From Deltaproteobacteria bacterium (GTDB lineage: Bacteria; Bdellovibrionota; UBA2394), in contig JAFLCD010000003.1 of the NCBI GenBank assembly GCA_017302715.1, positions 83,154 to 147,153 of the forward strand: 64,000 nucleotides of DNA, written 5' to 3'. Made by a program: the position numbers and the translations under genes. Positions 7,586 through 36,752 of this stretch are shown here, piece by piece; position 1 is the first letter of the stretch, and every line of letters starts with the position of its first letter. The notes below the pieces were generated by a model. That model had not been told where the DNA came from. It was given only the letters and a program-made list of their open reading frames with translations, and searched no databases.

Positions 7586-8356
7586 TTGAAAATTCGTCCA
7601 TCGATTGCGTATTCGCTGATTGTCACAGTTCCTAGCATTTTATTTTTTAGTTCTTTAGCTGTTATTTTATATCCACTTGACTGGATCTTTCTTCGTAAGC
7701 GCCAACTTCAGGGCAAATGGGGCGCCACCGTCACCGTCGTAAAATTAGGTTGGGGCTATTGGATGCTCTGGGCGCATGGAATAAAAGTAAAAGTTTCTGG
7801 TCCCGCCGCGCAGGATTTAAAAAAAATGAAGGGCGTTATTTTTGTTCTGAATCACCAAAGTGTGACAGACATCATGACCGTCATTAAAATTCTTCCAAAA
7901 GCTTCAAGTTTTATTTCAAAGAAAGAACTTCGTTCTGTGCCTGTGTTTGGTTGGGCGATGAAAGTTGTGGGGACTCTTTTTGTAGATCGATCTCGGCGCA
8001 CGCAGAATCAAGCGCTCTCTGAAGTAAATGATCTGATGAGAGATGGTTTTAATATTATTATTTTTGCTGAAGGAACGCGTTCGCCGGATGGAAAACTTTT
8101 GCCATTTAAAAGAGGTGCATTTGTGATGGCAATCGAGGCGCAAGTTCCCGTAGTTCCGGTTACGATTTTAGATAGCCGTTTGTGCTGTCCAAAAGGGCAG
8201 TTGGCCATAGCGCCGGGGACCATTCACGTTATCGCTGATAATCCTATCTCGACAAAGGGTCTTAAAATCGAAGATCGGCATCAACTTTCAGACCAAGTTC
8301 GTCATATCATGTTGAAACATCTAGAAAAATTCGAAGAAAATCGTGAAACTAGTTAG
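7586..8356 (+). CDS. plsC: 1-acyl-sn-glycerol-3-phosphate acyltransferase
   Basis: N-terminal membrane anchor, HX4D acyltransferase motif (NHQSVTD) and FAEGTRS motif. Confidence 0.8.
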   Translation: MKIRPSIAYSLIVTVPSILFFSSLAVILYPLDWIFLRKRQLQGKWGATVTVVKLGWGYWMLWAHGIKVKVSGPAAQDLKKMKGVIFVLNHQSVTDIMTVIKILPKASSFISKKELRSVPVFGWAMKVVGTLFVDRSRRTQNQALSEVNDLMRDGFNIIIFAEGTRSPDGKLLPFKRGAFVMAIEAQVPVVPVTILDSRLCCPKGQLAIAPGTIHVIADNPISTKGLKIEDRHQLSDQVRHIMLKHLEKFEENRETS

Positions 8357-8358
8357 GA

Positions 8359-9657
8359 GTGTATCGAAGTCTTATTCTTTTTATAGGCCTCTGGCTGGTG
8401 GTCTTTGGATTGTTTTTTCAATCCAAACTTTATGCACAAGCCACAAAACGCCTCGGTGTTGTGGAGATCGAGGCCGACACTATTTCGAATCCAGATAAAC
8501 AAAGAATTCTGCAATCTATTCGAGACAACCTCAAAGAACAGCGCCTTATGGTTGTTGTTTCTGATGAAGAGATCGAATCAAAGCTGGTCCAAAAAAGTAA
8601 GAATCGAAATGAATTTGAAAAACTTCGAGTCGATTCTCAGCGAAGAAAAAATGAGCTCGAGAGAAAAGTCGAAGAAGGTAAAAAGTTTTATTTGGCTTCT
8701 CAGTTTGAAGAAACAATCGGAGCCTTACATTCTGCATTTAAATCTTTAAAGGAAATAGCTGCGCCAGCTTCTCCGCAAGTAACCGATGAGATTTTAAAGT
8801 TAACGGCTGCTAGTCATTATTTTTTGGGGAACGAAGATCAGGCTAAAGTTTATCTCTCGGCGATTTTAGACATTAATCCGAGCGCAGAATTAAGCGCTGA
8901 GCAATTTCCTCCAAATTTTATTCAAGTTTTTGAATTGCTCAGACAAGAGAATCGTTTTGCGTTTAAAACATGGACGTTTGAAGGCGGTGGCAAAGATGTG
9001 AAGGCCACGATCTATGGATATCCTTTAAATTTTGAAGGTGGCGAAAGTTCATCCGTGAAACTTCCATTGGATCATCCCATTTGGGGGAGAGCTTCTATTT
9101 TATTAGAGAAGGAAGGTGCTTTGCCTGAACTTTTTTCTCTTGATCAGTTGCCAAAAGAAGTTCGATTTCAATCGATGAAAGATCGGCGAATAGCGACTAA
9201 AGGCCTGTTTGCGCCGCTTGGTAAAGAGACGCCCCCTGTCGAACTAAAAAAAATTATGGTACTCTTAAATCTGTCGGCGGTATTTCTGGGGTCCGCTGTT
9301 TTAGATCTCAAGAATCAATGGATTATTAAGGGGCAGTGGTTAGAGAGTTCGACGAATCGAGTGTCGCCCGTGATAACAAAAGCGGATGCAAATTATACGC
9401 AAGCTACAAGGGAAGTTGTTCAAGAGCTTCTTACTTTTATTTCTCCTGAAGGAAGAATTTTAAACGATCGAAAAATTTTGCCTTCGGCGGGAGAACTCAA
9501 CGGTGAGGAAGTGGCGATTGAAAGTTCAAAGCCTTTTTATAAAACTTGGTGGTTTTGGTCGTTAGTCGGTGCAGGCGCTTTAGGAGCGGGTGTTGGAACT
9601 TATTTCGCCGTTACTTCGCAGCAAGATAGATTAAAAGTTCAGGTGCAACGAAAATGA
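8359..9657 (+). CDS. secreted protein with conserved C-terminal 'WWFW' Gly-rich transmembrane anchor (paralogue 1)
   Basis: 432 aa with a signal peptide and a coiled-coil-like charged region. C-terminus: ...PFYKTWWFWSLVGAGALGAGVGTYFAVTSQQDRLKVQVQRK. Confidence 0.55.
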   Translation: MYRSLILFIGLWLVVFGLFFQSKLYAQATKRLGVVEIEADTISNPDKQRILQSIRDNLKEQRLMVVVSDEEIESKLVQKSKNRNEFEKLRVDSQRRKNELERKVEEGKKFYLASQFEETIGALHSAFKSLKEIAAPASPQVTDEILKLTAASHYFLGNEDQAKVYLSAILDINPSAELSAEQFPPNFIQVFELLRQENRFAFKTWTFEGGGKDVKATIYGYPLNFEGGESSSVKLPLDHPIWGRASILLEKEGALPELFSLDQLPKEVRFQSMKDRRIATKGLFAPLGKETPPVELKKIMVLLNLSAVFLGSAVLDLKNQWIIKGQWLESSTNRVSPVITKADANYTQATREVVQELLTFISPEGRILNDRKILPSAGELNGEEVAIESSKPFYKTWWFWSLVGAGALGAGVGTYFAVTSQQDRLKVQVQRK

Positions 9658-10478
9658 TTTTTGATATTTCAAAAAAAATACTTTCTTCGGCTTTAATTTT
9701 TTTGTTTTGCATGCCGGTTTATTCGGCTGATCAAAAAGTAAAAGATTTTAGATCGACGAATCAAAAAGTGGCTTTGCTCGGGATGTTTACTGAAGGAATT
9801 GATGAGCCTACGGAGACAAAACTCGTTCAAGATTTTAGAAAATCAATCAATCGCTACTCTAGAAGTTATGGTACATCTTCGATTGCTGTTTTTAGTTTAC
9901 AGAAAAATGATGGAAAGAAATTTTTTCGACCCTCGGAACAGTCGCTTGTAGAGTCTCAAAAGAAATTTCTTATTTCGGCTGCTAAAGATAATTCGGTAGA
10001 TATCATTGTGCTTGGTAGTTTGCGTCGATTAGATAGTGAAATTGAAGCGGAACTTCAGCTCTATGATCAGCGAATTGATACAGCATCTGCCGTAGAAAAA
10101 GCTCATTTTCCTTTGGCTGATTTTCATAAGGCCATCGAGACTTTAGTTTATCGAACGATGAATTATATGGATCGCGATGGATATGTTCATATGAGCGGCC
10201 AAGATTTCTTGGAACCTCCAGCGTCTTCTAATTCTGCACTCGCTCTTGATTCTTTGAAACCCGCAAAAAATGAATTTTCAATTAATCCTTCTGATTTAAG
10301 TTCGGGCGCTTTGGCTGGAGACGTTTCGATTGGTGGAGAGAAAACTCCCTTTTGGGAAACGTGGTGGTTCTGGACAATTCTTGGGGGCTCTTTAATTACC
10401 GCAGGTTCGCTGACGTATTATTTTGCTGTGGTGGACCAGCCGCCTAAACAAGCAAACGTTCATTTTAATCAGCCTTAA
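9654..10478 (+). CDS. secreted protein with conserved C-terminal 'WWFW' Gly-rich transmembrane anchor (paralogue 2)
   Basis: 274 aa with a signal peptide. Start overlaps the preceding stop (ATGA). C-terminus: ...TPFWETWWFWTILGGSLITAGSLTYYFAVVDQPP... Confidence 0.55.
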   Translation: MIFDISKKILSSALIFLFCMPVYSADQKVKDFRSTNQKVALLGMFTEGIDEPTETKLVQDFRKSINRYSRSYGTSSIAVFSLQKNDGKKFFRPSEQSLVESQKKFLISAAKDNSVDIIVLGSLRRLDSEIEAELQLYDQRIDTASAVEKAHFPLADFHKAIETLVYRTMNYMDRDGYVHMSGQDFLEPPASSNSALALDSLKPAKNEFSINPSDLSSGALAGDVSIGGEKTPFWETWWFWTILGGSLITAGSLTYYFAVVDQPPKQANVHFNQP

Positions 10479-12212
10479 TTATTTTAAGTCTTGGCAGTGA
10501 ATAAAAAGCTGTTCATCTGCTTTGATTTCGATGAATCCAGAATATATTTGCGAAGAACTTTCACAGCGAATCGCATGGCTTCCTTCGGCAAGTGGAATAG
10601 CTCGCGCATTTGGTCCAGGAACGGTGCCGCGAGGTTGGCCATCAATATAGAGTTGAGCAAATCCTGTGGGTGGAGCAATCACATCAATTCTTCCCATCCG
10701 TGTCGTTTTTGGAACAGATGGAAAATGTTCTCTCACAGAGTTTTCATTTAACGTTTGAGTGATCGTAGGTTTTTTCTTCGACTTAGGAGCAGGTGCTGCT
10801 ACCGGCGCCTCTATCGCATCTTTATCTGTAGGCTTTAAAATATTTTGTACATGAGCCGATTGTTTTGCAGGCGACTTATCGGGCAATGGAATATTAATTT
10901 CTTTTGAATTTTTTTGAGTAGCTGGAACTTCTTCAAGTTGCTCCATTTGAGTTTCGTGCGTGGAATCTTGCTTCTTAGGCAAAATAAAAAATCCAATCAT
11001 CAGTAATGCGCAAACCGCGGCTGCAATTCTTACCGGCTTTTTTGCAAAAAAATGAGTGATGGCTCGTGGATTCGCGGTAGCCGTTTTTTCTACCTTGCTT
11101 CTCTGAAATGTTTCCATCTCACTCATCGGAGTTGCTTTAAAAGAAATATGCGTTCTTGCATTTTGAATTTGTTGAGTGGGAGTGGCGGGAACATCAGCAA
11201 GTGCACGTAAGAGCTTTTGCTTCTCTTCGACAATCTCGCTAGCAAATAAAGTCTGCATAAAGGCAGCAAGATCTTGAGAGCCAAACGAATATTTTTTCTC
11301 ATAAGCAAGACGGGTAAGATCGGTCAGCATCTCACCGGCAGTTTGATATCGCTTAGAAGTATCTTTTGTTAAAGCTTTTAAAACAATTTGATCGAGTTCT
11401 ACTGGAATCTGTTCATTCTTTTCAGAAGGCGGATAGACTTTTCCTTCCTTTACACGCTCCAAAGTTTCGAGATCTGTCTTCGATCTAAATAATCTTTCAG
11501 AAGTTAAAAGTTCATGCAGAATCACTCCGCAGGCATAGATATCGCTCGTTTGCGAAACGATTTTTCCTGAAGCTTGCTCAGGAGACATATAGCTAAATTT
11601 GCCTTTAAGCACTCCTGCTTCAGTCTTTGAAATTTTTGATGCGGCTTTAGCGATTCCGAAATCTAAAATTTTAACTTCGCCTTCGTAAGAGAGAATGATG
11701 TTTTGTGGGCTCATGTCTCGATGGACAATCGAGAGTGGCGTATCATCGGAATCCGATTTTCGATGCGCGTAATCGAGGCCCTTAAGAACTTCGGTTAAGA
11801 TCATTACGGATTGCTCAACTGTCAAATGCAGAGATTTTCCAGAAGCTGCGCGAGTAATATCTCTTAAATTTTTTCCCTCTATGTATTCCATGGCGATGTA
11901 GAGAGTGCCATCGACTTCGCCGAGCTCATAAATCTGAACGATATTTGCCTGAGTAAGACGAGCAGCGATTTTAGCTTCGTCTTCAAACATTTCTACGAAT
12001 TCAGGATCTTCGCTTAAGTGCTGAAGAATTTTTTTGATAACGATAATTTTTTCAAATCCGCGAACACCGACTTGCTTAGCTTTAAAGATTTCTGCCATTC
12101 CACCGACGGCAATACGTTCCAAAAGGTAATAATGCCCGAAGGAATGAACACGAAATGATGGGGTTTTTTCCATGGCCTTAGTAGACAGAAACTCCTTTTT
12201 TAAGAATAACAT
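10479..12212 (-). CDS. Hanks-type serine/threonine protein kinase with transmembrane segment and C-terminal PEGA-like extracytoplasmic domain
   Basis: GxGxxA loop (GGMAEIFKAK), catalytic loop (HRDMSPQNIIL), DFG motif (DFGIAK). One TM helix (AAAVCALLMIGFFILP), then a C-terminal beta-rich domain. The start may instead be the second ATG at 12173. Confidence 0.85.
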   Translation of the reverse strand: MLFLKKEFLSTKAMEKTPSFRVHSFGHYYLLERIAVGGMAEIFKAKQVGVRGFEKIIVIKKILQHLSEDPEFVEMFEDEAKIAARLTQANIVQIYELGEVDGTLYIAMEYIEGKNLRDITRAASGKSLHLTVEQSVMILTEVLKGLDYAHRKSDSDDTPLSIVHRDMSPQNIILSYEGEVKILDFGIAKAASKISKTEAGVLKGKFSYMSPEQASGKIVSQTSDIYACGVILHELLTSERLFRSKTDLETLERVKEGKVYPPSEKNEQIPVELDQIVLKALTKDTSKRYQTAGEMLTDLTRLAYEKKYSFGSQDLAAFMQTLFASEIVEEKQKLLRALADVPATPTQQIQNARTHISFKATPMSEMETFQRSKVEKTATANPRAITHFFAKKPVRIAAAVCALLMIGFFILPKKQDSTHETQMEQLEEVPATQKNSKEINIPLPDKSPAKQSAHVQNILKPTDKDAIEAPVAAPAPKSKKKPTITQTLNENSVREHFPSVPKTTRMGRIDVIAPPTGFAQLYIDGQPRGTVPGPNARAIPLAEGSHAIRCESSSQIYSGFIEIKADEQLFIHCQDLK

Positions 12213-13375: not shown

Positions 13376-15091
13376 ATGGCTGGAGCACCATCAAATAGAC
13401 TTGGCGAGCTGCTGATTAAAGAAAATTTAATTTCAGCTTCTCAACTTATGAAAGCTCAAGAGGCGTCGCGCTCAAACGGCGGTCGCTTGAGTTTCAATTT
13501 AACAAAATTAGGTTTCATTAAAGAAGCCGATCTTACAAATTTTCTCAGTAAGCAATTTGGAGTTCCCTCGATCGATCTCAGCTCCTTTGAAGTAGATGAC
13601 GAGATCATCGCGTTGATTCCTCAAGACGTCGCAGAAAAACATTTAGTAATCCCTGTTAACAAAGTTGGAAGTAATTTGATCGTTGCGATGAGTGATCCCA
13701 GCAATATTTTTGCTATCGACGATATTAAATTTTTAACCGGATACAATATCGAAGTTGTCGTAGCTTCTGAGCAAGCCATCAAAGAGTCCATCGAAAAATA
13801 TTATCAAAGCGATACGATGAAATTTTCTGAAGTCATGGCCGACTTTGAAGATGATGATATGGAGATTGTCGCTGGTGAGTCGGATCTCGATCTTGCCGAG
13901 CTTGAGAAATCCTCTGAAGATGCTCCTGTAGTTAAACTGTGTAATCTTATTTTAATGGAAGCTATCAAAAAAGGTGCTTCTGATATTCATATCGAGCCTT
14001 ACGAAAAGGAATTGCGTGTTCGCTATCGTGTGGACGGCGTTCTTGTTGAGCAGATGAAGCCACCTGTGAAATTGAGAAATGCAATTAGCTCACGTATTAA
14101 GATTATGTCGTCTCTCGACATTGCTGAAAGACGCCTTCCTCAGGACGGTCGTATTAAACTTAAATACGCTAAAGGCAAAGAAATGGACTTTCGGGTTTCT
14201 GTTTTGCCAACCCTCTTCGGCGAAAAAATTGTTTTACGTCTTTTAGATAAAGGAAACTTGCAACTCGATATGACGAAGCTCGGCTTTGAAGAAGCTGCGC
14301 TTAAAGATTTTAAGAAAGCGATTCATCAACCTTTCGGAATGGTGCTTGTAACGGGTCCAACAGGTTCCGGTAAAACAACGACACTTTATTCTGCACTTTC
14401 AGAGCTCAATCAAATTACAGAAAATATTTCGACTGCAGAAGATCCAGTGGAATTTAACTTGCTTGGTATCAATCAAGTGCAGATGCACGAAAGTATCGGA
14501 CTTAATTTCGCGGCTGCTTTGCGATCTTTTCTTCGACAAGATCCCGACATCATCATGGTGGGGGAAATTCGGGACTTTGAAACGGCAGAAATTTCGATTA
14601 AGGCCGCTCTTACAGGTCACTTGGTTCTTTCGACCTTGCACACGAACGATGCTCCAAGCACTGTCAGTCGACTTTTGAATATGGGTATTGAGCCTTTCTT
14701 AGTTGCTTCTGCTCTCAATGCGATTGTTGCTCAACGTTTGGCTCGAAAAATTTGTACGGAGTGCAAAGAAGAATTGAAAGTTCCTGTTCAGACTCTTCTC
14801 GATATCGGAGTGAATCCAGATATTGCAGCTTCGATGAAGGTTCATCACGGCAAAGGTTGCAGCAATTGCTCGAACACCGGATACAAAGGTCGAGTCGCTC
14901 TTTATGAAGTCATGATCATGAAAGATGAGCTTAAAGAATTTATTTTAAACGGAGCGAGTACGGCTGAACTTAAACGCGAAGCTATTCGCTTAGGAATGCA
15001 AACTCTTCGTATGAGTGCCGTTAATAAAATTCGTGATGGGATAACGACGATCGAAGAAACCGTTCGAACAACGGCAAGCGATAATTCTTAA
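13376..15091 (+). CDS. pilB: type IV pilus assembly ATPase PilB (GspE family)
   Basis: 571 aa. N-terminal GSPII domain, Walker A (GPTGSGKTTT), Asp/His boxes, tetracysteine motif (CTEC...CSNC). Confidence 0.9.
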   Translation: MAGAPSNRLGELLIKENLISASQLMKAQEASRSNGGRLSFNLTKLGFIKEADLTNFLSKQFGVPSIDLSSFEVDDEIIALIPQDVAEKHLVIPVNKVGSNLIVAMSDPSNIFAIDDIKFLTGYNIEVVVASEQAIKESIEKYYQSDTMKFSEVMADFEDDDMEIVAGESDLDLAELEKSSEDAPVVKLCNLILMEAIKKGASDIHIEPYEKELRVRYRVDGVLVEQMKPPVKLRNAISSRIKIMSSLDIAERRLPQDGRIKLKYAKGKEMDFRVSVLPTLFGEKIVLRLLDKGNLQLDMTKLGFEEAALKDFKKAIHQPFGMVLVTGPTGSGKTTTLYSALSELNQITENISTAEDPVEFNLLGINQVQMHESIGLNFAAALRSFLRQDPDIIMVGEIRDFETAEISIKAALTGHLVLSTLHTNDAPSTVSRLLNMGIEPFLVASALNAIVAQRLARKICTECKEELKVPVQTLLDIGVNPDIAASMKVHHGKGCSNCSNTGYKGRVALYEVMIMKDELKEFILNGASTAELKREAIRLGMQTLRMSAVNKIRDGITTIEETVRTTASDNS

Positions 15092-15118
15092 GTTTAATTA
15101 AAGGAAAGTGAGAACACT

Positions 15119-16312
15119 GTGGAAAGAGAAGACGAAAAAGCTATTTCACCAGATATGTTGCCTGATAATTCCTCGCTAACTCTTCAGGTGCTTTTAAAAA
15201 CGATGCTTGAAAAAGGTGCGAGCGATTTGCATATAACTGCTGCAACGCCTCCTGTTCTGCGAGTGGATGGAATTTTGATTCCGTTAAAGTTGCCGGCGTT
15301 GAGTCCGACGGATTGTAAGCGTCTTTGTTACAGTATTTTAACCGACTCTCAAAAATCTCGATTTGAAGAAGATAATGAACTCGATCTTTCGTTCGGTATG
15401 AAAGGTCTTGCTCGATTTCGTTGCAATCTTTTCGTGCAAAGAGGTGTGGTGTCTGGTGCATTTCGACAAATTCCATTTAAAATTTCTACACTTCAAGAGC
15501 TTGGAATGCCTCCTATTGTTGGCGAACTTTGTGAGCGTCCCCGGGGGCTCATTCTTGTAACCGGACCAACAGGTTCTGGTAAATCCACAACTCTTGCCGC
15601 AATGATCGATAAAATTAATCGTGAAACTCATCAACATATTTTAACGATTGAAGATCCAATCGAGTTTTTGCATCCTCACAAAAGTTGCATCGTCAATCAG
15701 CGCGAAGTAAATGCAGATACCGAAAGTTTTACGAAAGCACTCAAATACGTTCTTCGACAAGACCCTGATGTGGTGATGGTGGGAGAACTTCGAGATCTCG
15801 AAACGATTGAAGCGGCACTTGCGATCGCAGAAACCGGTCACTTATGTTTTGCGACTTTGCACACAAACTCAGCTCTTCAAACCATTAATCGGTTAGTGGA
15901 TGTTTTTCCTTCACATCAACAGCCACAAATTCGTGCTCAGCTTTCATTCGTTTTAGAGGGAATTATTTCACAAACTTTAATCGAAAAAGCTTCAGGCGTG
16001 GGACGAGTGATGGCCTATGAAGTTTTAATTCCTACGCCTGCGATTCGAAATTTAATTCGCGAAGATAAAGTTCATCAAATTTATTCGCAAATGCAAATTG
16101 GTCAGGGCAAGCATGGAATGAACACGCTCAACCAGTCTCTTGTTCAACTTTATCAACGTCGCATGATCACGATGGATCAAGCACTCTCTTGCAGTAGTGA
16201 TCCTGAAGAAGTTCGTACGATGATTATGAATCAAGGCGGTGGAGTAACTGCCAATGGAATGCCTGGCGGACAAACAGCTAGAGCAAAAGCAGAAGGTACA
16301 AAGAAAGGATAA
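15119..16312 (+). CDS. pilT: twitching-motility retraction ATPase PilT (with N- and C-terminal extensions)
   Basis: Walker A (GPTGSGKSTT), PilT-type motifs and AIRNLIRE. GTG start after an AAGGAAAG RBS. 397 aa is longer than typical PilT. Confidence 0.85.
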   Translation: MEREDEKAISPDMLPDNSSLTLQVLLKTMLEKGASDLHITAATPPVLRVDGILIPLKLPALSPTDCKRLCYSILTDSQKSRFEEDNELDLSFGMKGLARFRCNLFVQRGVVSGAFRQIPFKISTLQELGMPPIVGELCERPRGLILVTGPTGSGKSTTLAAMIDKINRETHQHILTIEDPIEFLHPHKSCIVNQREVNADTESFTKALKYVLRQDPDVVMVGELRDLETIEAALAIAETGHLCFATLHTNSALQTINRLVDVFPSHQQPQIRAQLSFVLEGIISQTLIEKASGVGRVMAYEVLIPTPAIRNLIREDKVHQIYSQMQIGQGKHGMNTLNQSLVQLYQRRMITMDQALSCSSDPEEVRTMIMNQGGGVTANGMPGGQTARAKAEGTKKG

Positions 16313-16315
16313 TCT

Positions 16316-17536
16316 ATGGCGCTTTATAAATGGGAAGGTGTCGCTCGAAATGGACAAATCAAATCGGGAACTAAGGAAGCACCTACAGAAGCAGCGATGC
16401 TTCAGTTTCTTCGCTCGCAACAGATTCGTCCAAAAAAACTTTCAGCTGTAAAAACGGGTGGCTTAGGTGGCTTCAATTTTGCTTTTGGCAGCGGCGTTTC
16501 ACAGAAAGAGCTTGTCGTTTTCTCTCGTCAGTTCGCGACGATGATTGATGCAGGTCTTCCTCTTGTTCAATGTTTAGAAATTTTGGGAAATCAGGCAGAA
16601 AATCCTGCGTTTAAAAAAGTAATCAAAGGAGTTCAGGTCGACGTTGAAGGCGGTAGCACTTTTGCCGATTCACTCAAAAAATATCCGGATGTCTTTGATT
16701 CTCTCTATGTGAACCTTGTGGCCGCTGGAGAAGTGGGCGGTATTCTCGACGTTATTTTACAAAGACTTTCGGCTTATCTTGAAAAAGCTGCGAAATTAAA
16801 AGGCCAAGTAAAATCGGCGATGGTTTATCCTATTGCGATTGCTGGGGTCGCCGTTTTAGTTATTACCGTTCTTCTTGTTTGGGTTATTCCTATTTTTGAA
16901 AATATGTTTAAAGAATTTGGTGGCGCCGCACTCCCAGCCCCGACTCAAATTGTTATCAATTTAAGTAAATGGACTCAGCATAATTTTATTTTTCTCGTTA
17001 TGTTTGGAGTGGGGATGATCTTTTTGTGGAAGTGGATCAGAAAAAATCCACGTACGCTTGAAATCACAGACGACATTTTCTTAAAGCTTCCAATCTTTGG
17101 TCCGCTCATTCGAAAAGTTGCTGTTGCAAGATTTACGCGAACTCTTGGAACGATGATTTCTTCGGGGGTTCCTATTCTCGAAGCTCTTGATATTACCGCG
17201 CGAGCTGCCGGAAATAAAACTGTTGAGAAAGCAATTTATAGAGCTCGACAAAGTATCTCTGAAGGTAAATCGGTTGCGGAACCTATTGCGCAGAGCAAAG
17301 TATTTCCGCCGATGGTTTGTCAGATGATTAACGTCGGAGAACAAACCGGTGCTCTCGATACGATGCTTGGAAAAATCGCGGACTTTTACGATGAGGAAGT
17401 AGATGCCGCGGTAAAAGGCCTAACGAGTTTGATGGAACCTGCGATGATGGTGATTCTTGGGGGAATCATCGGGGGACTCGTTGTGGCGATGTATCTTCCT
17501 ATCTTCGAATTGGCAGGAAATCTTAAAGCGGGTTGA
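16316..17536 (+). CDS. pilC: type IV pilus inner-membrane platform protein PilC (GspF family)
   Basis: 406 aa with two GspF repeats and 3 TM segments, positioned after pilB/pilT as in canonical loci. Confidence 0.9.
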   Translation: MALYKWEGVARNGQIKSGTKEAPTEAAMLQFLRSQQIRPKKLSAVKTGGLGGFNFAFGSGVSQKELVVFSRQFATMIDAGLPLVQCLEILGNQAENPAFKKVIKGVQVDVEGGSTFADSLKKYPDVFDSLYVNLVAAGEVGGILDVILQRLSAYLEKAAKLKGQVKSAMVYPIAIAGVAVLVITVLLVWVIPIFENMFKEFGGAALPAPTQIVINLSKWTQHNFIFLVMFGVGMIFLWKWIRKNPRTLEITDDIFLKLPIFGPLIRKVAVARFTRTLGTMISSGVPILEALDITARAAGNKTVEKAIYRARQSISEGKSVAEPIAQSKVFPPMVCQMINVGEQTGALDTMLGKIADFYDEEVDAAVKGLTSLMEPAMMVILGGIIGGLVVAMYLPIFELAGNLKAG

Positions 17537-19119
17537 TGATGCGAGAACGAATTAAATGGTTGATGACGTTTCGTGTTGCCTTCGTGCTTGTCATGGGGGC
17601 AACAGGTGCTGCCTTGCAATCGGTCTATCATGATCCGATTGCAGCGGAACTCATTTTTCTTTTGAAAGCTGGAATCGGATTTAGTTTAATTGCGATTCCT
17701 AGCTTTTATTTTTTGAAAAATTCTAGGGCCATTTCAATTCATGCCTGGACTCAAATTATTTGGGATATCGGATACACAAGCGCACTTGTTTACGTCACAG
17801 GTGGACTCTATTCGACCTTCATCATGCTCTATGCAATTCATATCTTACTGACGGCTTCAGTTTTTCTTTCAAGGGGTGCTTTGGTGGCTGGCGCTATTTC
17901 AGCTTTAAGTTTGATAAGCGTTGGCATTTTTCAAGTTGGAAAGCAAATTTATTTAGAACCCAATTTATTTTCGAGATCTCTTTTTAGTGCAAGCGCTCTG
18001 CTTTTGTTTGGAGCCTTCGTAGCATTTTTATTTAAAAATAGAGAGCAACTCGCGAAAAATTTAGAGAAAACTTCCGCCGATCTTAAAGGCTTAAATGATT
18101 TACATTCAGCTATTGTGGACCACGTTCCCTCGGGAATTTTATATTCGGATGCCCATGCCAATGTTCAACTGATGAATCAGGCGGCTCTTCAAATTTTAGA
18201 GCGATCTTATGTGGGAGAAAATCTTAAACGTTCAAATATCGAATTCTTAATTAAAAGCGATGGTCGATTTGAATCAGACTTTAAGAGCGAAAAGTCTCAA
18301 AAAATAATCGGACATCATTTAACCAAATTGCCTAACGGCGGTTGGGTCATTGTATTTCAAGATGTAACTCAGATTCGTGAGCTTGAAACAAAAGTTCAAC
18401 TTCAAGATAAACTTGCAAGCGTTGGGCAGCTAGCCGCAGGGATCGCACATGAAATTCGAAATCCTTTGGCGAGTTTGAGTGGATCGATTCAGCTTTTAAA
18501 ATCTGAAATGTCGATTAAAGAATCTTCTGACAAACTTATGAAAATTGTTTTGCGAGAGACAGATCGCTTAGATCACTTACTCCAAAGCTTTTTAAATTAT
18601 GCGAAGCCTTCGCATCTTCAATTAGAGAGAATTAATGTCTCTGAATTCGTGGATGAAATTCTTAGTCTCATTAAAAATCAGCCTGCGATTCAGTCGCATA
18701 AAATTTCAATTAAAACGAGTATAGATAAAAATTTATTTTGCTTTGTCGATCCTCGACATCTTAAGCAAATTTTTTGGAATCTTATAAAAAACTCAATTGA
18801 AGCGATTCGTGAGAGCGGCGAGATTTTGATTAAGGCGAGTGAGCGAGATCACGATGGTGAAGCGATGATTGTGTTTTCTGTTGAAGATACGGGCGCTGGA
18901 ATTAGCAAAGAAATTTTAGACAAAGTTTTTGATCCGTTCTTTTCTACAAAGGATTCAGGAACAGGACTCGGTTTAGCTTTGGTATATCAGTTGGTGAAAT
19001 CTCATTCAGGTCAAATGGGTGTGGAGAGTGAACCAACTCGCGGAACAAAATTTTGGTTTGCTTTATTGAAAGATGGACCTGCTGAAGAACGTTCTCTCTC
19101 AGCAGCGTCAGGAGGGTAA
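17533..19119 (+). CDS. pilS: sensor histidine kinase PilS-like (polytopic N-terminus, HisKA, HATPase)
   Basis: About six N-terminal TM helices, H-box (AAGIAHEIRNPL), and G1/G2 boxes (EDTGAGIS, GTGLGLAL). ATGA overlap with pilC; sits upstream of the sigma-54 regulator. Confidence 0.75.
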   Translation: MMMRERIKWLMTFRVAFVLVMGATGAALQSVYHDPIAAELIFLLKAGIGFSLIAIPSFYFLKNSRAISIHAWTQIIWDIGYTSALVYVTGGLYSTFIMLYAIHILLTASVFLSRGALVAGAISALSLISVGIFQVGKQIYLEPNLFSRSLFSASALLLFGAFVAFLFKNREQLAKNLEKTSADLKGLNDLHSAIVDHVPSGILYSDAHANVQLMNQAALQILERSYVGENLKRSNIEFLIKSDGRFESDFKSEKSQKIIGHHLTKLPNGGWVIVFQDVTQIRELETKVQLQDKLASVGQLAAGIAHEIRNPLASLSGSIQLLKSEMSIKESSDKLMKIVLRETDRLDHLLQSFLNYAKPSHLQLERINVSEFVDEILSLIKNQPAIQSHKISIKTSIDKNLFCFVDPRHLKQIFWNLIKNSIEAIRESGEILIKASERDHDGEAMIVFSVEDTGAGISKEILDKVFDPFFSTKDSGTGLGLALVYQLVKSHSGQMGVESEPTRGTKFWFALLKDGPAEERSLSAASGG

Positions 19120-19122
19120 CAC

Positions 19123-20616
19123 ATGAGTGCAAGAATACTTGTCGTCGACGATGAATTAAGCGTACGAGAATTTTTCGAAATTCTTTTAGCTAAAGAGGGT
19201 TATGAAGTCGTTACGGCTTTAGATGGAAGTGATGCCCTTCGGCTTTTGAGAGAACAAAGTTTCGATCTCATCATCAGTGATCTTCAAATGAAGGGCGGAG
19301 ATGGGATGACGTTACTTCGCGAATCTAAAAAATTTCAGAACGAAGTTCCTGTGATTATGATTACCGCTTTTGCAACTACAGATTCAGCAGTTGAAGCAAT
19401 GAAAGCTGGAGCTTTTGATTACGTCAGCAAGCCTTTTAAGATTGAAGAAATTAAAGTGGTGATTCAACGAGCTCTCAATACAAAAACATTGGTCGTTGAA
19501 AATCGAAATTTAAAATCTGAATTGCGCGATAAATATGATTTTTCTAATTTGCTTGGTGAATCTGAGCCAATGAAAAATGTTTACGATCTCATTCGCAAAA
19601 CTTCTCCTACTCGTACCAATGTTTTGATTTGGGGAGAGTCAGGAACGGGTAAGGAGCTTGTGGCCAAAGCCATTCATTTTAATTCTCCTCGAAAAGAAAA
19701 GCCTTTTATGACGGTGAACTGTGGCGCCATTCCTCAAACGTTGATTGAGAGCGAACTTTTTGGTCATGAGAAAGGCTCTTTTACAGGAGCGAGTGCTTTG
19801 AAGGCTGGACTTTTTGAAGCAGCACATAAGGGCACTATCTTCTTGGATGAAATCGGAGAGCTTCCTTTGCCGATGCAAGTAAAATTACTTCGCGTGATCC
19901 AGGAGAGATGTTTTCATCGTGTGGGCGGAACAGAGAGTATTGAAGTGGACGTTCGTATTATCGCGGCCACTAATAAAAACCTCGAAGAAGAAGTCAAAAA
20001 AGGAAACTTTAGAGAAGATTTATTTTATCGATTGAATGTCATTCAGATTCAACTTCCGCCACTTCGGTTGCGAAAAAAAGATATTCCACTTTTGTCGGAG
20101 CATTTTCTTAGAAAATTTGCCAAAGAGACCGGAAAGGATGTTCGTAAAATCAGTCCAAAGGCCATGGAACTTTTAATGGCCTATGATTATTACGGAAACG
20201 TTCGTGAACTCGAAAATATTATCGAGCGCTCTGTTGCTCTTGAACCAGGAAATGAAGTTCAATCTGAATCTTTGCCCGGCAATGTCATTCATCCCGAGCA
20301 AAATCGCGAAAAATTTTCACTCAAAGAAGCCGAACTTCATTTTGATCAGGGTGGAGTAGCTTTAGACAATTTAGTCGATGCATTTGAAAAGGATTTACTT
20401 TTAAAAGCTCTCGATAAATCTCATGGCTCACGTTCTCGCGCAGCTAAACTTTTAGGCATTTCGAGTCGGTCGATGCGATACCGCCTCAAAAAGCACCTTA
20501 TAGGCGGCTACGACGACGAGGACTCCCTACTAGACGTTTCTGTGGATGGGAGCGAAAATGAAGGTGTACTTCGAACAATGAAGCTGGAAGACTTTTCTAA
20601 GGAAGGAAAAGGCTAA
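19123..20616 (+). CDS. pilR: sigma-54-dependent response regulator PilR (NtrC family)
   Basis: Receiver domain with the phospho-acceptor Asp region, AAA+ sigma54-activation domain (GESGTGKELVAKAIH) carrying a GAFTGA-like loop (GSFTGA), and a C-terminal HTH. Confidence 0.85.
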   Translation: MSARILVVDDELSVREFFEILLAKEGYEVVTALDGSDALRLLREQSFDLIISDLQMKGGDGMTLLRESKKFQNEVPVIMITAFATTDSAVEAMKAGAFDYVSKPFKIEEIKVVIQRALNTKTLVVENRNLKSELRDKYDFSNLLGESEPMKNVYDLIRKTSPTRTNVLIWGESGTGKELVAKAIHFNSPRKEKPFMTVNCGAIPQTLIESELFGHEKGSFTGASALKAGLFEAAHKGTIFLDEIGELPLPMQVKLLRVIQERCFHRVGGTESIEVDVRIIAATNKNLEEEVKKGNFREDLFYRLNVIQIQLPPLRLRKKDIPLLSEHFLRKFAKETGKDVRKISPKAMELLMAYDYYGNVRELENIIERSVALEPGNEVQSESLPGNVIHPEQNREKFSLKEAELHFDQGGVALDNLVDAFEKDLLLKALDKSHGSRSRAAKLLGISSRSMRYRLKKHLIGGYDDEDSLLDVSVDGSENEGVLRTMKLEDFSKEGKG

Positions 20617-21204
20617 TTGAAAAAGTTTCACTCTCTTTATAGCAAAAGTATTATTGGATTTACGTTGATCGAGTTAATGATCACGGTCGCGATCATTGCA
20701 GTTTTATCGGCCATCGCGATTCCCGTTTATACGAGTTATATCCGTCGCTCGTATTTGTCAGAAGCGACAACTTCGATTTCTGCGATCAAATCAGCCGAAG
20801 AAAGTTTTTTCACGATTAACAATTGTTATATCGAGGCGCTTGCTCATCCGGCGACTGTTCCCGCTGGTGTATCGGTTTCTTGGGATTCGTCGACCTTTTC
20901 TACACCCAATTCTTGGGCTCGAAACGCATTGGGAGTTCGACCTGATAAAAATGTTCGATTTCAATATCAAGTTTACGCTTCTAATTCCCTATCGGGCGGT
21001 GGATGCGGCAGTTCTCCAACGGCAGTTCCCGCAACTTTAGGTTGCGTGGCAAATGCCCAAACCGTTTTTGCTAACGCAGCTCTTTTTCCAAGTAATTGGT
21101 ATATTGTCGTCGCTCGAGGTGATTTAAATGGTGACAATACTTCTTCTACCATCATTTCTGGGATAGATGACTCTCAAATTGTCATGTGTAATGAGCTTCA
21201 ATAA
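20617..21204 (+). CDS. pilA: type IV pilin (prepilin, N-methylation site G|FTLIELM)
   Basis: TTG start immediately after the pilR stop, preceded by an AAGGAAGGAAAAGG RBS. Leader ...SIIG then [23 protein letters not shown]-terminal Cys pair. Confidence 0.8.
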   Translation: MKKFHSLYSKSIIGFTLIELMITVAIIAVLSAIAIPVYTSYIRRSYLSEATTSISAIKSAEESFFTINNCYIEALAHPATVPAGVSVSWDSSTFSTPNSWARNALGVRPDKNVRFQYQVYASNSLSGGGCGSSPTAVPATLGCVANAQTVFANAALFPSNWYIVVARGDLNGDNTSSTIISGIDDSQIVMCNELQ

Positions 21205-21216
21205 TCTTCTTATTAA

Positions 21217-23121
21217 ATGGTGAAAAAGAGTTCTCGATTTCTTTATTTTTCTATTATTTTTGCAGGATTTTGTTTGGCCGCGATTTTGCGCATGTCGAAC
21301 TACTCTTTTGTTTTTCAAAATATCACCGGCCATCTTAACTTCATCGACCCGGATTGTTTTTATCAATTGAGACGTCTCGTTTATTTCTTAGCGAATTTTC
21401 CGCAGACCTTGCATTTTGATCCACTCGCCGATTGGCCCGCAGGTTCATTCGTCGACTGGCCAGATGCCTTTATTTATCTCATCGGCGTGCCACTTAAATT
21501 AATGGGGGTTCGAGATTTTAGAAGTCTCGAAATCGGATCCTGCTTCATGATGATTTTTTACGGTCTCGTCTGTTGCTTTGCTATTTTTAGATTGGCCAAG
21601 CGTCTGATTCCGGATTCTTCGATCGCGCTTCTTGTTTTCTTTTTATCGACGATGAATTTTTTACTGATTCGATTTTCTTGCTTAGGACAACTCGATCATC
21701 ATATTTTTGAAGCTATCTATCCGCCGGTGGTTTTGCTTTTAAGTTTAAAAGCTTTTCAGGACTTCTCTAAGGGATCGAGCGTTTTTCTTGGACTTCTTCT
21801 TTCACTCGCCTTGATGACGAGTTCTTCGAGTATTTTTATCGTCGGAGTGTTTTTTGCCATTTATGGATTTATTCTTGGCAAGAAAGAGAATTTTAAACTT
21901 TATTTTTTAACGGTAGGTTTAACTTTCGCAAGTCTTTTGCCGGCGGCCGTTTTGAACTTGATGGCCTTTGGACGATTTCAAATGATGGAACATCCGTCTT
22001 TTTTTCACATCGGCTTGGTTTTGGTTCTCGCTCTCTTCGCATACCTCGTTGCGAGATTTAAGTCGCAGGCTCCCGCAATTCTTTTAGGTTTCTTCGCTCT
22101 TTTTCTTATTGGCTATGCCCTCAATTGGCCGAGCCTCCTTATGCAGCCGCTTGCCCAAGGATTCGAATATGTATTTGGCCGCTCCGGAGTTTTACAAAAT
22201 GTTTCAGAGGCCTCACCTATTTTTCTGAATTACAATCAAGTTCAACTTAATTTTATTCATCTCAATTTTGGATATTTTGTTTACCTACTTCCGTTGGCTT
22301 GGGTTTTTGGCTTGTTCTATAAAAAGTTCTCCGTTCAAGAGAGAGTTTTGTTTTTGTCTCTGACGATGCTTTCGGCGCCTGGAATTTTTCAAAAAAGATT
22401 TGCGCATATTATGCTCGGCCTCTTTTTAGTTTTCGTCGGTTGGTGCCTTTGGAAAACTCTGGAGGCCTTTAAGCGATGGAAATTTCGTATTGGTCCTTTG
22501 CTGATTTTTACTCTTTTTTGTTTGGCGATTTTTCCCACTCTTCAATTTGGTTTTGCTCCTTCGGGAACTCCTCGAGATCTCGTCGATCTTAATGCTACGA
22601 AATTTTTTCTAGAGCGGCTTAAGCCTGAGGAAAAATCAGATCTCATTGTTTGGGATAGATTGGCGCTTAAGAGAAAAGTTACCGAAGGTATTTGGGCCAA
22701 CCCCAATCTCGGCCATATGCTCAATTATATGACTGGCTACGGAGTGCTTACGAATAGCTTTTATCATTGGGATAGCTTTGATAAAGATTTTAAATGGAGG
22801 TCCATTGAATCGGATTATGATTTCGTGCAGGCCTTAAAAGAAAATAAAATTCGATTTTATATTTTAGCGGATGATTTTAGATTTTTTCAGCTTCAATACC
22901 GCTTAAGAAATCTGGATCCAAAATCTTTTGTAGAAAATAAAGTGATCGATGGCCAAATGGCCACCGTCTTTAATATTCCAGAATTAGAAAAAAAGGTTTG
23001 GGTGCGAAGATTGATTCGAGAAGAAACATTTCCGGATTCTGAGAAATTATTTCAGGTGAAATTTAATACGGATCATTTTTATAATTATCTCAAAGCTTAT
23101 CGATTTACGGCGCTACCTTAG
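21217..23121 (+). CDS. polytopic membrane protein, GT-C-fold glycosyltransferase candidate with STT3/AglB-like first-loop motif
   Basis: 634 aa with at least 11 predicted TM helices. The first extracytoplasmic loop carries IDPDCFYQLRR (compare the D-x-D...Y..R loop of STT3/PglB/AglB and acidic loops of ArnT/PMT). C-terminal soluble domain of about 190 aa; no clear WWDYG. Confidence 0.45.
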   Translation: MVKKSSRFLYFSIIFAGFCLAAILRMSNYSFVFQNITGHLNFIDPDCFYQLRRLVYFLANFPQTLHFDPLADWPAGSFVDWPDAFIYLIGVPLKLMGVRDFRSLEIGSCFMMIFYGLVCCFAIFRLAKRLIPDSSIALLVFFLSTMNFLLIRFSCLGQLDHHIFEAIYPPVVLLLSLKAFQDFSKGSSVFLGLLLSLALMTSSSSIFIVGVFFAIYGFILGKKENFKLYFLTVGLTFASLLPAAVLNLMAFGRFQMMEHPSFFHIGLVLVLALFAYLVARFKSQAPAILLGFFALFLIGYALNWPSLLMQPLAQGFEYVFGRSGVLQNVSEASPIFLNYNQVQLNFIHLNFGYFVYLLPLAWVFGLFYKKFSVQERVLFLSLTMLSAPGIFQKRFAHIMLGLFLVFVGWCLWKTLEAFKRWKFRIGPLLIFTLFCLAIFPTLQFGFAPSGTPRDLVDLNATKFFLERLKPEEKSDLIVWDRLALKRKVTEGIWANPNLGHMLNYMTGYGVLTNSFYHWDSFDKDFKWRSIESDYDFVQALKENKIRFYILADDFRFFQLQYRLRNLDPKSFVENKVIDGQMATVFNIPELEKKVWVRRLIREETFPDSEKLFQVKFNTDHFYNYLKAYRFTALP

Positions 23122-24245
23122 GGCGTGCTTACGGACTTAGTTTTCGTAGCATCATAAATAAAATATCCACCCACTCCCGCTAAAACGGCAACACCTGTCC
23201 AAAACCAAGGAGATTCAAAAATAGAACTTTCGCTTCGATCTTCATTTATCTGACTGTCTTTAGAAAAATCTTTAGCCCACGCAGTCGAAGGATCAGAAGG
23301 TTCTTTTAAAATCGAGCCCATTTGAGCCTGAGAGATAATAAGAGGAACAGCTTGGTTGCTTTCATCCCGAATCATAACGGCAATTCCCGCTGCTCGACTG
23401 AGATCTGTCGGCCGCGTGGCAATTAAATTTTCTTGCAGTTTTCGATGCTCGATATTTTTCCAAATAGATCGGTTCCAAATTTTGTCAAAGTGAGTTTCAT
23501 TTTTGCTAACCGTAAGCCAATAAGCTTGAAGTTCATCTCCATCGAGTAGATGAATTAAAAATTTTCCTTCTGTTAATTCAAGAGGCAAAGCTTTCTCTCG
23601 CCCGTTAATGAGAATTCTTTGTGCAAAATGAGAAGTCGTGGGCGATGGTAGTTGAATTTTATATTTGATATTTTGGTTTTGCTTAAGTTCCGACTGCAAT
23701 TTTGTAGAAAGTCGTGCTGCAAATGCTGGCTCTCCAAAAAATCCACGCACCTCTGGTGAAACTTCGTTGAGTCCTTCCTCGGCATCCCCAATCATTCTTT
23801 GCAGGGCTGCAATCTCGACCAAATCCTCAAATGTTTTTGGATAAGGCATGCTTTGACTGATCAATTGTCTCGCTTCGTTGAGTGAGGATTGCGCATCGGC
23901 GTAACGCAATTCTAAATAAAGCTGTGAAGCACGCTTTATTTTGCTCTCGATGGTCTCATCGTTTTCATCCTTTATTTTGGTTCGATCCAAAGATGAAAAG
24001 AGCGGAACTCGGCGATAAAATCCACTTAACCAAAGGTCTTCGTCTTTTTTAGATAGAGGTAGTCCAACCAGCGATGAAGCCTTTTCATCATGGGGGTTGA
24101 TGAGATAAGTTTGTGCATAGAGATTTTGAAGGGACAAAATGCAAAAGATTATGGCGCTGATGAGGCCTCTAAAAAGCTTATTAAATAAAGAACTAAACCC
24201 TATTTTCATGCTGCGGGTTCTCGCCTGGCAACAGAAGGAAGTCAA
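23118..24245 (-). CDS. secreted protein with conserved C-terminal 'WFW' Gly-rich transmembrane anchor (paralogue 3)
   Basis: 375 aa with a signal peptide. C-terminus: ...FESPWFWTGVAVLAGVGGYFIYDATKTKSVSTP. Same tail architecture as 8359..9657 and 9654..10478. Confidence 0.5.
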   Translation of the reverse strand: MTSFCCQARTRSMKIGFSSLFNKLFRGLISAIIFCILSLQNLYAQTYLINPHDEKASSLVGLPLSKKDEDLWLSGFYRRVPLFSSLDRTKIKDENDETIESKIKRASQLYLELRYADAQSSLNEARQLISQSMPYPKTFEDLVEIAALQRMIGDAEEGLNEVSPEVRGFFGEPAFAARLSTKLQSELKQNQNIKYKIQLPSPTTSHFAQRILINGREKALPLELTEGKFLIHLLDGDELQAYWLTVSKNETHFDKIWNRSIWKNIEHRKLQENLIATRPTDLSRAAGIAVMIRDESNQAVPLIISQAQMGSILKEPSDPSTAWAKDFSKDSQINEDRSESSIFESPWFWTGVAVLAGVGGYFIYDATKTKSVSTP

Positions 24246-33458: not shown

Positions 33459-34058
33459 TTAGTTAAGTTCGCCGAAGATCTGAATTCCACCAGCATTTGG
33501 TGTGCCATTAGTAACGGATATATCTCTCCAAAATGCAGAGTAAGGAGCTGATCCATCAAGATCTCCTTGAGCAATCGCGGATACGGATTGTGTGCTGCTG
33601 CTACCATCGGTAATAGCTCCAGCTGCTGATGCAGTAGCTAAGTTAGTACTTGCCGCTGTAACTAAAGCTGTACCAGCAGGAGTGCCGCTCAGTACGCCAG
33701 CGTTATAAGCGAACAAAACAGGAGACGAACTTGCGAATCCAAGTACGTTAAAGGCTCCAGCGTCTACGCCGCTTTCCCAGGCTACTTTAGCACCAGTAGG
33801 AGTTGTTCTTGGAACAGAAACTGTTTGAGCCATAAAAGTTGGGACAGCTTCACCACCGCCCGAAGAGGCAGCTCTTGGACGTGTGAAGAAAGTTACTTCA
33901 GCATCAACCAAGTTTTTCAAAAGCAAAGGTGCTTCTGCAGTTTTCGATCGTTTGATGTAATTTAAGAACGCTGGGATCGCCACAGCGGCCAAGATTCCGA
34001 TGATCGCCACAACGATCATAAGCTCGATAAGGGTGAAACCCTTTTTTGTCATTTTCAT
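33459..34058 (-). CDS. type IV pilin, second copy (short 6-aa leader, G|FTLIELM)
   Basis: MKMTKKG then [24 protein letters not shown]..., a classic type IVa prepilin N-terminus. Ala/Gly/Ser/Thr-rich C-terminal domain. Confidence 0.8.
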
Positions 34059-35754: not shown

Positions 35755-36752
35755 GCATCAAAGTCGCTCTTCTTAAAGGTGATGGCATCGGTCCTGAAAT
35801 TTGTCAGGCGATGATGGAAATTTTTACTCAGCTAAAGGCCCCCATCGAATGGATCGATGTTCCCTGCGGTGAAGATACATTTGAAAAAATGGGTTCATCG
35901 ATGCCGATCTCATCGATCGATGCGATTAAAGAACTCAAGGTTGCCATTAAAGGCCCGACGGCCACTCCCATTGGAGGAGGAAGAAAATCAGCGAACGTAG
36001 TTTTAAGAAAATCTCTCGATCTTTATTCGAATGTGCGACCTGCTCAAAGTATTCCTGGAGTGGAAACTCCGTTTAAAAATGTAGATTTGATTATTATTCG
36101 CGAGAATACCGAAGATGTTTATGCAGCGATTGAACACACGTTGCATCCAGATGTTTGGCAGTGTTTAAAGATTATCACTCGACCGGGAAGCGAGCGCATC
36201 TGTCGTTATGCTTTTGAAATGGCGAGAAACTTAAAACGAAAAAAAGTCACCTGCGTGCACAAAGCTAACATCATGAAACTCACTGACGGAAAATTTTTAG
36301 AAATTTTTCGAGAGGTTGCCAAAGATTTTCCTGAAATCGAAGCGAATGATGTGATTGTCGATAATGTGTGCATGCAATTGGTTTCAAAGCCTCAACAATA
36401 CGATGTGATGGTAACTCAGAATTTATATGGCGATATTATTTCGGATCTTTGTGCGGGTCTGATTGGAGGCCTCGGAGTCGCCGGAGGTGCCAACATCGGA
36501 AAGAAGGCCGCTGTTTTTGAAGCGGTACACGGAACGGCTCCAGACATCGCCGGAAAAAATATGGCGAATCCAACGGCTTTATTGTTATCGAGCGCGATGA
36601 TGCTCGAGCATTTAAAATTATTTGAGGAAGCCAAGCGTTTGCGAAATTCTTTGTTCAAAGTGATTCAAGAAGGCAAGTCCACGACGAAAGATCTTAAAGG
36701 TTCAGGCACAACCAAAGAATTTACCGAAGCGATTTGCAGAAATTTTACTTAA
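35751..36752 (+). CDS. isocitrate/isopropylmalate dehydrogenase family protein, probably NAD-dependent isocitrate dehydrogenase
   Basis: Start at the ATG giving [17 protein letters not shown]. The [19 protein letters not shown] motif is typical of IDH/IMDH. Confidence 0.75.

Follow-up and report, generated by a model that had tools for sequence, protein, structure and literature searches.

A widespread, uncatalogued Trp-rich module at the C-terminus of secreted bacterial proteins is probably a retained membrane anchor

Three predicted secreted proteins encoded in a 64,000-nucleotide stretch of a Bdellovibrionota genome (Deltaproteobacteria bacterium, assembly GCA_017302715.1, contig JAFLCD010000003.1, forward-strand positions 83,154 to 147,153; hereafter the window) end in a shared Trp-rich module, which is real, very widespread, and uncatalogued as a C-terminal anchor. 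The proteins are P1 (8359–9657, + strand), P2 (9654–10478, + strand), and P3 (23118–24245, – strand), and their open reading frames (ORFs) and peptide strings were reproduced exactly at these positions. The module consists of P-[FIV]-Y-K-x-W-W-F-W-T-x-x-G-x-x-x-x-G, followed by a ~23-residue helix rich in Val, Ala, Gly, and Thr and a non-basic tail of 10–49 residues. A sequence-only reading of the window had proposed that this shared end may be an undescribed sorting signal. As we discuss below, the balance of evidence tips modestly toward a single-pass membrane anchor that is retained in the protein, and not a cleaved tag.

The module sets P1, P2, and P3 apart from everything else in the window. 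First, a six-frame scan of stop-to-stop segments of at least 60 residues found WFW-, WWF-, or WWW-type motifs only in these three proteins, in each case 29–38 residues before the stop codon. Second, a membership hidden Markov model (HMM), built from 136 external modules and containing no window sequence, was searched with filters off against 618 six-frame window segments and picked exactly these ORFs: P1 scored 52 bits (E 1e-15), P2 28 bits (E 2.7e-8), and P3 13 bits (E 1.4e-3), and the next segment had an E value of 4.5. The existence of a C-terminal module common to several secreted proteins is thus confirmed, with the 13-bit score making P3 a divergent and marginal member. BLASTP between the window proteins aligned the tails alone, with an E value of 2e-9 over 48 residues for P1 and P2 and a weaker match for P3. 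The earlier description of the ectodomains as unrelated-looking is right only in part: in a profile–profile comparison, hhalign matched residues 276–415 of the P1 ortholog profile with residues 89–271 of the P2 profile (probability 97.5%, E 8e-12), so P2, in its alpha/beta domain and tail, is similar to the C-terminal half of P1. Judged by this match, P2 looks like a distant paralog of that half.

Adjacency of the P1 and P2 genes and distant homology of their C-terminal halves are what can be said for a trivial explanation, namely a recent local duplication or a chance likeness of ordinary hydrophobic tails. Against it, two further contigs (L121 and L123) show the same gene order of acyltransferase, P1, P2, convergent Ser/Thr kinase, and ribF, and in these the orthologs of P1 are only 37–38% identical and those of P2 only 43–44% identical. 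P1 and P2 are therefore separately conserved, and because gene order persists at 37–44% identity, their kinship is old and reflects no recent duplication. In addition, P3 is unlinked to P1 and P2 and has an ortholog of its own, the external HMM selects these three proteins alone in the window, and module members number in the thousands elsewhere. A trivial origin is accordingly very improbable, and we consider recent duplication and chance similarity to be ruled out by the external HMM, the conserved synteny, and the 7004 protein clusters described below. The objection that the similarity might be a local duplication, raised with the original proposal, fails on the same grounds.

The anatomy of the module is strongly conserved. 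In a position-by-position count over 193 examples, Pro occurs at position –5 in 93%, Phe, Ile, or Val at –4, Tyr at –3 in 99%, Lys at –2 in 85%, and Lys, Thr, or Arg at –1, followed by W-W-F-W and then by Thr at +4 (91%), Gly at +7 (91%), and Gly at +12 (80%), with the Tyr and Lys frequencies partly inflated because 56 of the 193 examples were collected by a Y-K-[KT]-W-W-F-W DNA pattern. In the same set, the first polar residue beyond the helix lies a median of 23 residues from the first Trp and is Arg or Lys in 42%, and tails have a median length of 18 residues (range 10–49). Among six orthologs of the P1 family, P392, Y394, T396, W398, F399, W400, G409, G411, G413, and Y415 are invariant, and the tails follow the pattern LKVQVQ, LRVQVQ, VRVRVS, LQFQMT, LKVRIQ, or LQLSIQ. 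The P2 family conserves the string GGEKTPFWExWWFW...YYFLV...AxVxF, with P232, F233, W234, E235, W237–W240, G245, T249, Y255–F257, V259, A267, and F271 invariant in the three to four sequences aligned. P3 and its ortholog are identical at 29 of 35 module positions, compared with 55% over the whole protein. Mean pairwise identity of the motif and helix exceeds that of the ectodomain both in the P1 family (0.55 versus 0.41) and in the P2 family (0.61 versus 0.47); the post-helix tail is less conserved (0.27 and 0.38, respectively) but keeps its alternating hydrophobic pattern. A motif and helix that outconserve the ectodomain, together with a family-specific tail pattern, would be unexpected in a discarded propeptide.

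P1 (432 residues; NCBI protein J0L93_04640 of a metagenome-assembled genome, MAG) has five orthologs of 36–56% identity and consists, in order, of a signal peptide, a TolB-N/LpoB-like alpha/beta domain, TPR-like helices, a beta-sandwich, a second alpha/beta domain, and the C-terminal module. Its juxtamembrane motif, P392-F-Y-K-T-W-W-F-W400 (9532–9558, + strand), is marked by invariant residues in the ortholog alignment and by the external HMM score. The Gly/Ala-rich hydrophobic helix WWFWSLVGAGALGAGVGTYFAV (9547–9612, + strand) carries a Trp belt at its N-terminal end and a Tyr-Phe belt at its C-terminal end, and the post-helix tail TSQQDRLKVQVQRK (9613–9654, + strand) has an alternating, strand-like pattern; the protein thus ends in ...KPFYKTWWFWSLVGAGALGAGVGTYFAVTSQQDRLKVQVQRK. 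An AlphaFold2 model of P1, based on a six-sequence alignment, has a mean predicted local distance difference test score (pLDDT) of 72.7, with a moderately modelled ectodomain and a helix at residues 2–23, in the signal-peptide segment. Foldseek searches with this model gave no match in the PDB at E ≤ 1e-3; the domain-level matches obtained were to the TolB N-domain, PelC, LpoB, and TPR proteins, all of which are periplasmic scaffold folds. A 114-residue ORF (8405–8749, + strand), which lies wholly within P1 in another frame, is very likely spurious.

P2 (274 residues) comprises a signal peptide, the alpha/beta domain whose homolog lies in the C-terminal half of P1, and a module (10347–10475, + strand) made up of P232-F-W-E-T-W-W-F-W, the helix TILGGSLITAGSLTYYFAVV, and the tail DQPPKQANVHFNQP; it ends in ...TPFWETWWFWTILGGSLITAGSLTYYFAVVDQPPKQANVHFNQP. 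P3, of 375 residues counted from the first TTG codon, has a signal peptide, an ectodomain, and a divergent module, IFESPWFWTGVAVLAGVGGYFIYDATKTKSVSTP (23121–23225, – strand), in which Pro takes the place of the first Trp and the helix is reduced in length. As annotated publicly, P3 (P0190, 339 residues) starts at an internal Met and thereby loses the signal peptide (24137–24245, – strand). The true start is likely the in-frame M13 at nucleotide 24209, which would restore it, and the ortholog P0191 (55% identity) has a complete signal peptide. The signal-peptide-like N-termini of P1, P2, and P3 all show a hydrophobic segment followed by an A-x-A-type site (...YAQA, VYSA, and LYAQ, respectively). 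As the sequence-only reading had stated, a short polar tail follows each helix; these tails are 14, 14, and 11 residues long in P1, P2, and P3, with net charges of +2, 0, and +1. J0L93_04640 and J0L93_04695 are the public locus tags for window proteins, and the closest named relative of the genome is a Bacteriovoracaceae MAG.

The search for further members beyond the window returned thousands. A profile of 28 tails, run against 1.84 billion representative proteins, matched 7004 protein clusters at E ≤ 1e-3, of which 200 reached E ≤ 1e-10. We inspected the best 150 of the 7004, and nearly all have the module ~34–52 residues before the C-terminus. Signal peptides and hydrophobicity were judged by simple heuristics; by this measure, 90 of 104 top matches have a signal-peptide-like N-terminus and only three of the 104 have a lipobox, weak or doubtful in each case, so that most members are non-lipoproteins. 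A Pfam scan of 105 top members found TPR repeats in 54 and PEGA domains in 36. The same tail profile, run against a word-indexed protein database, retrieved only fragments of 91 residues or fewer, an apparent length bias that makes this search uninformative about architecture.

A second survey used a DNA-pattern scan for Y-K-[KT]-W-W-F-W in one genome per species and yielded at least 120 loci, a sample biased by the pattern itself. Among the loci listed, 56 have the motif in a C-terminal position. By label, 40 of these 56 are named Myxococcota, six are 'Deltaproteobacteria', six are unplaced Proteobacteria MAGs, two are 'Spirochaetales' MAGs (G+C fraction ~0.62), and two are unclassified. At least seven assemblies among the loci listed contain two matches each, and the 64-kb window contains three copies. 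In another 51 of the loci listed (L011–L118, for example L077, L093, and L104), the motif lies more than 100 residues from the stop codon. Nearly all of these are N-terminal signal anchors from Firmicutes or the candidate phyla radiation (CPR), in which (K)KP[FIV]YKKWWFW precedes a helix richer in Ile and Leu; some have a zinc ribbon before the motif and extracellular domains after the helix. They share with the module the same nine-residue motif right before a membrane helix and differ from it in being N-terminal and N-in/C-out, in their helix composition, and in the low-complexity linker and extracellular domains that follow. Neither a curated family nor a paper covering this cross-phylum P-[FIV]-Y-K-K-W-W-F-W motif was found. 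Finally, within the same 51 loci, two Bacteroidota sensor histidine kinases (L035:4631–7552, + strand; L063:3448–6621, – strand) carry Y-K-T-W-W-F-W between a periplasmic propeller/Y_Y_Y sensor and the cytoplasmic kinase domains, a domain order that puts the motif on the periplasmic side of an N-out/C-in inner-membrane helix. Occurrence before N-terminal, internal, and C-terminal helices, in both orientations, indicates that the motif is a general flank of cytoplasmic-membrane helices and no tag specific to C-termini. Only the full module, in which the motif, a Gly/Ala/Val/Thr-rich helix, and a non-basic tail close a secreted TPR or PEGA protein, appears to be typical of a lineage.

The module matches no known family. 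Searches of Pfam and NCBIfam release 20 with full proteins and isolated tails (E ≤ 10) returned only bPH_10, VIT1, TssQ, and FloR, all far below cut-offs, and no Pfam or NCBIfam model covered the module in the 105 top members, for which the 25 most-matched NCBIfam families were examined; the claim that it lies outside the known sorting-signal families therefore holds. An LPXTG-type pentapeptide, a PEP motif, and the signatures of GlyGly-CTERM (G-G), MYXO-CTERM (an invariant Cys), and PGF-CTERM (P-G-F) are absent from the three window tails. No LPXTG or PEP-CTERM model matched, and the GlyGly-CTERM, MYXO-CTERM, and PGF-CTERM models matched neither the tails nor eight full-length Myxococcota examples and were not among the 25 top families of the 105 members. 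Of named families, NCBIfam NF058595 ('invert_tail'), described by NCBI as a lipo-invert putative C-terminal anchoring domain, comes nearest; a single metagenomic fragment containing K-K-W-W-F-W (P0019) aligns to its profile positions 50–89 with 19.1 bits against a cut-off of 37. NF058595 matched neither the window proteins nor the eight full-length Myxococcota examples and was not among the 25 top families of the 105 members, and most module members are not lipoproteins. A PDB sequence search with the module profile found no solved structure that contains the module and gave a single chance match, to photosystem I PsaA. The motif string was found in no searchable paper, and nothing relevant was found on lipo-invert or on PEGA domains with Myxococcus kinases.

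In the sorting-signal explanation, a dedicated sortase-, exosortase-, rhombosortase-, or myxosortase-like membrane enzyme would read the Trp-rich motif, cut away the helix together with the tail, and either attach the mature protein or release it. The resemblance to the LPXTG, PEP-CTERM, GlyGly-CTERM, MYXO-CTERM, and PGF-CTERM systems is genuine: a signature motif and a hydrophobic helix stand at the extreme C-terminus of many otherwise differing secreted proteins, several copies occur per genome, the C-terminal form is seen, among the loci listed, only in Myxococcota-type and Bdellovibrio-like genomes, and no existing model describes it. Gly/Ala-rich, helix-destabilising segments are, moreover, typical of intramembrane-protease substrates. 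Multiple observations oppose cleavage. First, in other phyla these nine residues stand next to N-terminal and internal helices, which cannot undergo C-terminal sorting, and a related W-W-x-W-F variant opens the membrane helix of some kinases encoded next to module genes. Second, each ortholog family preserves its helix residues and its tail pattern. Third, the module lacks the terminal Arg/Lys cluster of the known systems; the region after its helix is slightly acidic, and the tail is longer and family-specific in pattern. Finally, no enzyme candidate emerged: sortase, exosortase, rhomboid, and CPBP-type domains were absent from the ORFs scanned (13.4–55.7 kb of the window), and the sole recurrent neighbour in the 56 C-terminal loci is a kinase. 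We therefore consider a cleaved sorting signal quite unlikely, and the idea of a dedicated enzyme is not borne out here.

The retained anchor that we favor would work as follows. The N-terminal signal peptide would direct Sec export of the ectodomain, which would remain in the periplasm as a scaffold of the TolB-N/LpoB-like, TPR, or beta-sandwich/PEGA type, tethered to the cytoplasmic membrane by the C-terminal helix in an N-out/C-in topology and kept there in the mature protein. P-x-Y-K-x-W-W-F-W would form an aromatic/lysine collar at the periplasmic membrane interface, the side on which the motif must lie in the two Bacteroidota sensor kinases, and in the three window proteins the Tyr-Phe pair would mark the opposite interface. 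The small-residue, Leu-poor helix (T-x-x-G-x-x-x-x-G; rich in Gly, Ala, Val, and Thr) could pack tightly with itself or with a partner helix, and the short tail, predicted to be cytoplasmic, would contribute a family-specific strand-like segment. In its general plan the module resembles ordinary type I bitopic proteins, which also combine a signal peptide, a periplasmic ectodomain, one helix of ~23 residues, interfacial Trp and Tyr residues, and a short tail. It differs from them in a juxtamembrane motif that is unusually invariant across thousands of unrelated ectodomains, and also in its reversed charge bias, its marginal Leu-poor helix, and the paired cysteines of some tails.

The likeliest packing partner would be a single-pass receptor Ser/Thr kinase, with the module holding a periplasmic adaptor beside it; this pairing is suggested by gene linkage. 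When all ORFs in the 56 Myxococcota-type loci were clustered, the sole recurrent neighbour family was a Ser/Thr kinase, present in 25 loci. A kinase gene lies directly upstream on the same strand of 16 of the 57 module genes in these loci, and several of the pairs overlap by 4 bp. With about 100 such kinases among the ~7400 genes of Myxococcus, chance adjacency would be a few percent, and the observed ~28% is a clear enrichment. The linked kinases join a kinase domain by one membrane helix to a periplasmic region, which matched PEGA in four of six cases tested, twice above the gathering score. The two-gene units (L085, L088, L094, L109, and 12 more) consist of a receptor Ser/Thr kinase followed by a small TPR module protein, often with a 4-bp overlap, and the membrane helices of some linked kinases start with TPWWVWFVGG. 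Clustering also gave one spurious neighbour 'family' in the 56 loci, which probably stems from ORFs antisense to the kinase genes in this high-GC DNA and was disregarded. In the window, P1 and P2 are in tandem and convergent with a membrane Ser/Thr kinase, as had been reported: their genes overlap by 4 nucleotides (9654–9657), and P2 abuts the kinase gene at 10478/10479. That receptor-type kinase (10479–12212, – strand; Pkinase E 2.7e-40) has a kinase domain, one membrane helix, and an extracytoplasmic C-terminal domain, in which PEGA is plausible by eye but is not claimed, as there was no Pfam match.

Several properties weigh against a retained anchor in the cytoplasmic membrane. Most of the kinase linkage is contributed by a single small-TPR family (31 of the 56 loci), and P3 shows none; AlphaFold2 gave no confident model of P1 residues 372–432 (pLDDT ~27). 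The flanking charges reverse the positive-inside rule, averaging +1.65 on the N-terminal side and –0.5 over the ten post-helix residues. The window helices are marginal, with Kyte–Doolittle values of 1.19–1.49 (below the usual threshold of 1.6) and a positive summed free energy on the Hessa biological scale; the 19-residue maximum is 1.30 for the P1 helix, compared with 2.32 for the helix of the neighbouring kinase and a mean of 1.86 for the module family. Leu makes up only 2–5% of the helix core throughout the family. Exactly two cysteines occur in 20 of 193 tails and a single cysteine in just one, where independence predicts about 3.6 and 33, respectively. Most two-cysteine tails have C-x5-6-C spacing, often ending in ...CQ or ...CM (P0059, P0073, P0091, P0105, P0121, P0188, L009, L032, L042, and others); from their spacing and pairing, these cysteines look like disulfides, which would place those tails outside the cytoplasm. 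Finally, the C-terminal residue is Phe, Trp, or Tyr in 28% of proteins.

The reversed charges, the marginal Leu-poor helix, the paired cysteines, and the aromatic ends keep alive an explanation in which the weakly hydrophobic segment escapes stop-transfer, the entire protein passes through the Sec channel, and the segment then inserts into or associates with the outer membrane in the manner of the glycine zippers of outer-membrane lipoproteins such as SlyB, with the tail in an oxidising compartment. Marginal hydrophobicity and Leu-poor, Gly-rich composition would suit such a route, as would a positive N-side flank with a neutral-to-acidic C-side flank, the strong pairing of cysteines in 20 tails, and the frequency of aromatic C-terminal residues, and tail ends show a strand-like alternation of 1.46, compared with 1.11 ± 0.07 in shuffled tails. 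However, 85% of family members reach the classical Kyte–Doolittle membrane-helix threshold of 1.6, helices of both orientations that unambiguously belong to the cytoplasmic membrane carry the motif, few members are lipoproteins (three weak candidates among 104), none of the three window tails contains a cysteine, and no machinery for placing a lone helix in the outer membrane is known to us. Glycine-zipper segments of the SlyB/Pcp type in Pfam do share with the module marginal hydrophobicity and a Gly/Ala-rich, small-residue segment suited to tight packing, but the module is a single helix and no hairpin, has an invariant Trp-rich collar that glycine zippers lack, and gave no match to Pfam Gly-zipper models in the window proteins, their tails, or the 105 members. 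We regard translocation to the outer membrane as unlikely. A broader version, speculative but deserving of some weight, is that the module is the recognition element of an undescribed targeting system used throughout Myxococcota and Bdellovibrio-like lineages, in which the helix would escape Sec stop-transfer and then be cleaved or inserted elsewhere (for example in the outer membrane, with its Cys-paired tail exposed) by dedicated machinery.

The remaining genes around P1, P2, and P3 complete the picture of the window. Immediately upstream of P1, after a gap of 2 nucleotides, lies a gene (7586–8356, + strand) whose syntenic counterpart in L121 and L123 encodes a PF01553 acyltransferase. P3 had been placed beside a 'GT-C gene'; the gene in question encodes a 634-residue polytopic membrane protein (21217–23121, + strand) that is indeed convergent with P3, its last four bases overlapping the P3 gene end, but the GT-C identity was not confirmed, as no Pfam family matched at E ≤ 1e-3. 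P3 sits between this polytopic protein and a glycosyltransferase-rich locus, ~2 kb downstream of a type IV pilus cluster of Myxococcus-like order (13376–21204) that encodes a PilB-type ATPase (T2SSE and MshEN domains), a PilT-type ATPase, PilC (T2SSF), a PilS-like histidine kinase, a sigma-54 response regulator, and a pilin with an N-terminal methylation motif. The glycan-synthesis locus on the other side of P3 (24246–35415) encodes a nucleotidyl transferase, at least five GT2-family and two GT1/GT4-type glycosyltransferases, and an ATP-binding cassette (ABC) exporter, and it includes a second pilin-like gene with an N_methyl motif (33459–34058, – strand). Farther along, a DsbD-type thiol:disulfide interchange protein (36745–38739, – strand; DsbD_N, DsbD_TM, and thioredoxin-like domains) has no visible link to the module.

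The module marks at least 7000 protein clusters and lacks a Pfam or NCBIfam model; such a model would annotate the membrane-attachment end of a large proportion of the TPR and PEGA proteins now labelled 'hypothetical' in Myxococcota and in predators resembling Bdellovibrio. With its reversed charge, its Leu-poor helix, and cysteine pairs in tails presumed to be cytoplasmic, the module is well suited to testing how diderm bacteria retain or sort marginal helices. If these features reflected a real alternative route, the module would define a new sorting system, and a lineage-wide targeting system, if true, would affect thousands of TPR/PEGA scaffold proteins, many of which partner receptor Ser/Thr kinases. 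The operon link with these kinases suggests a recurring unit of kinase plus anchored adaptor within very large kinase repertoires, one that is experimentally tractable in Myxococcus xanthus.

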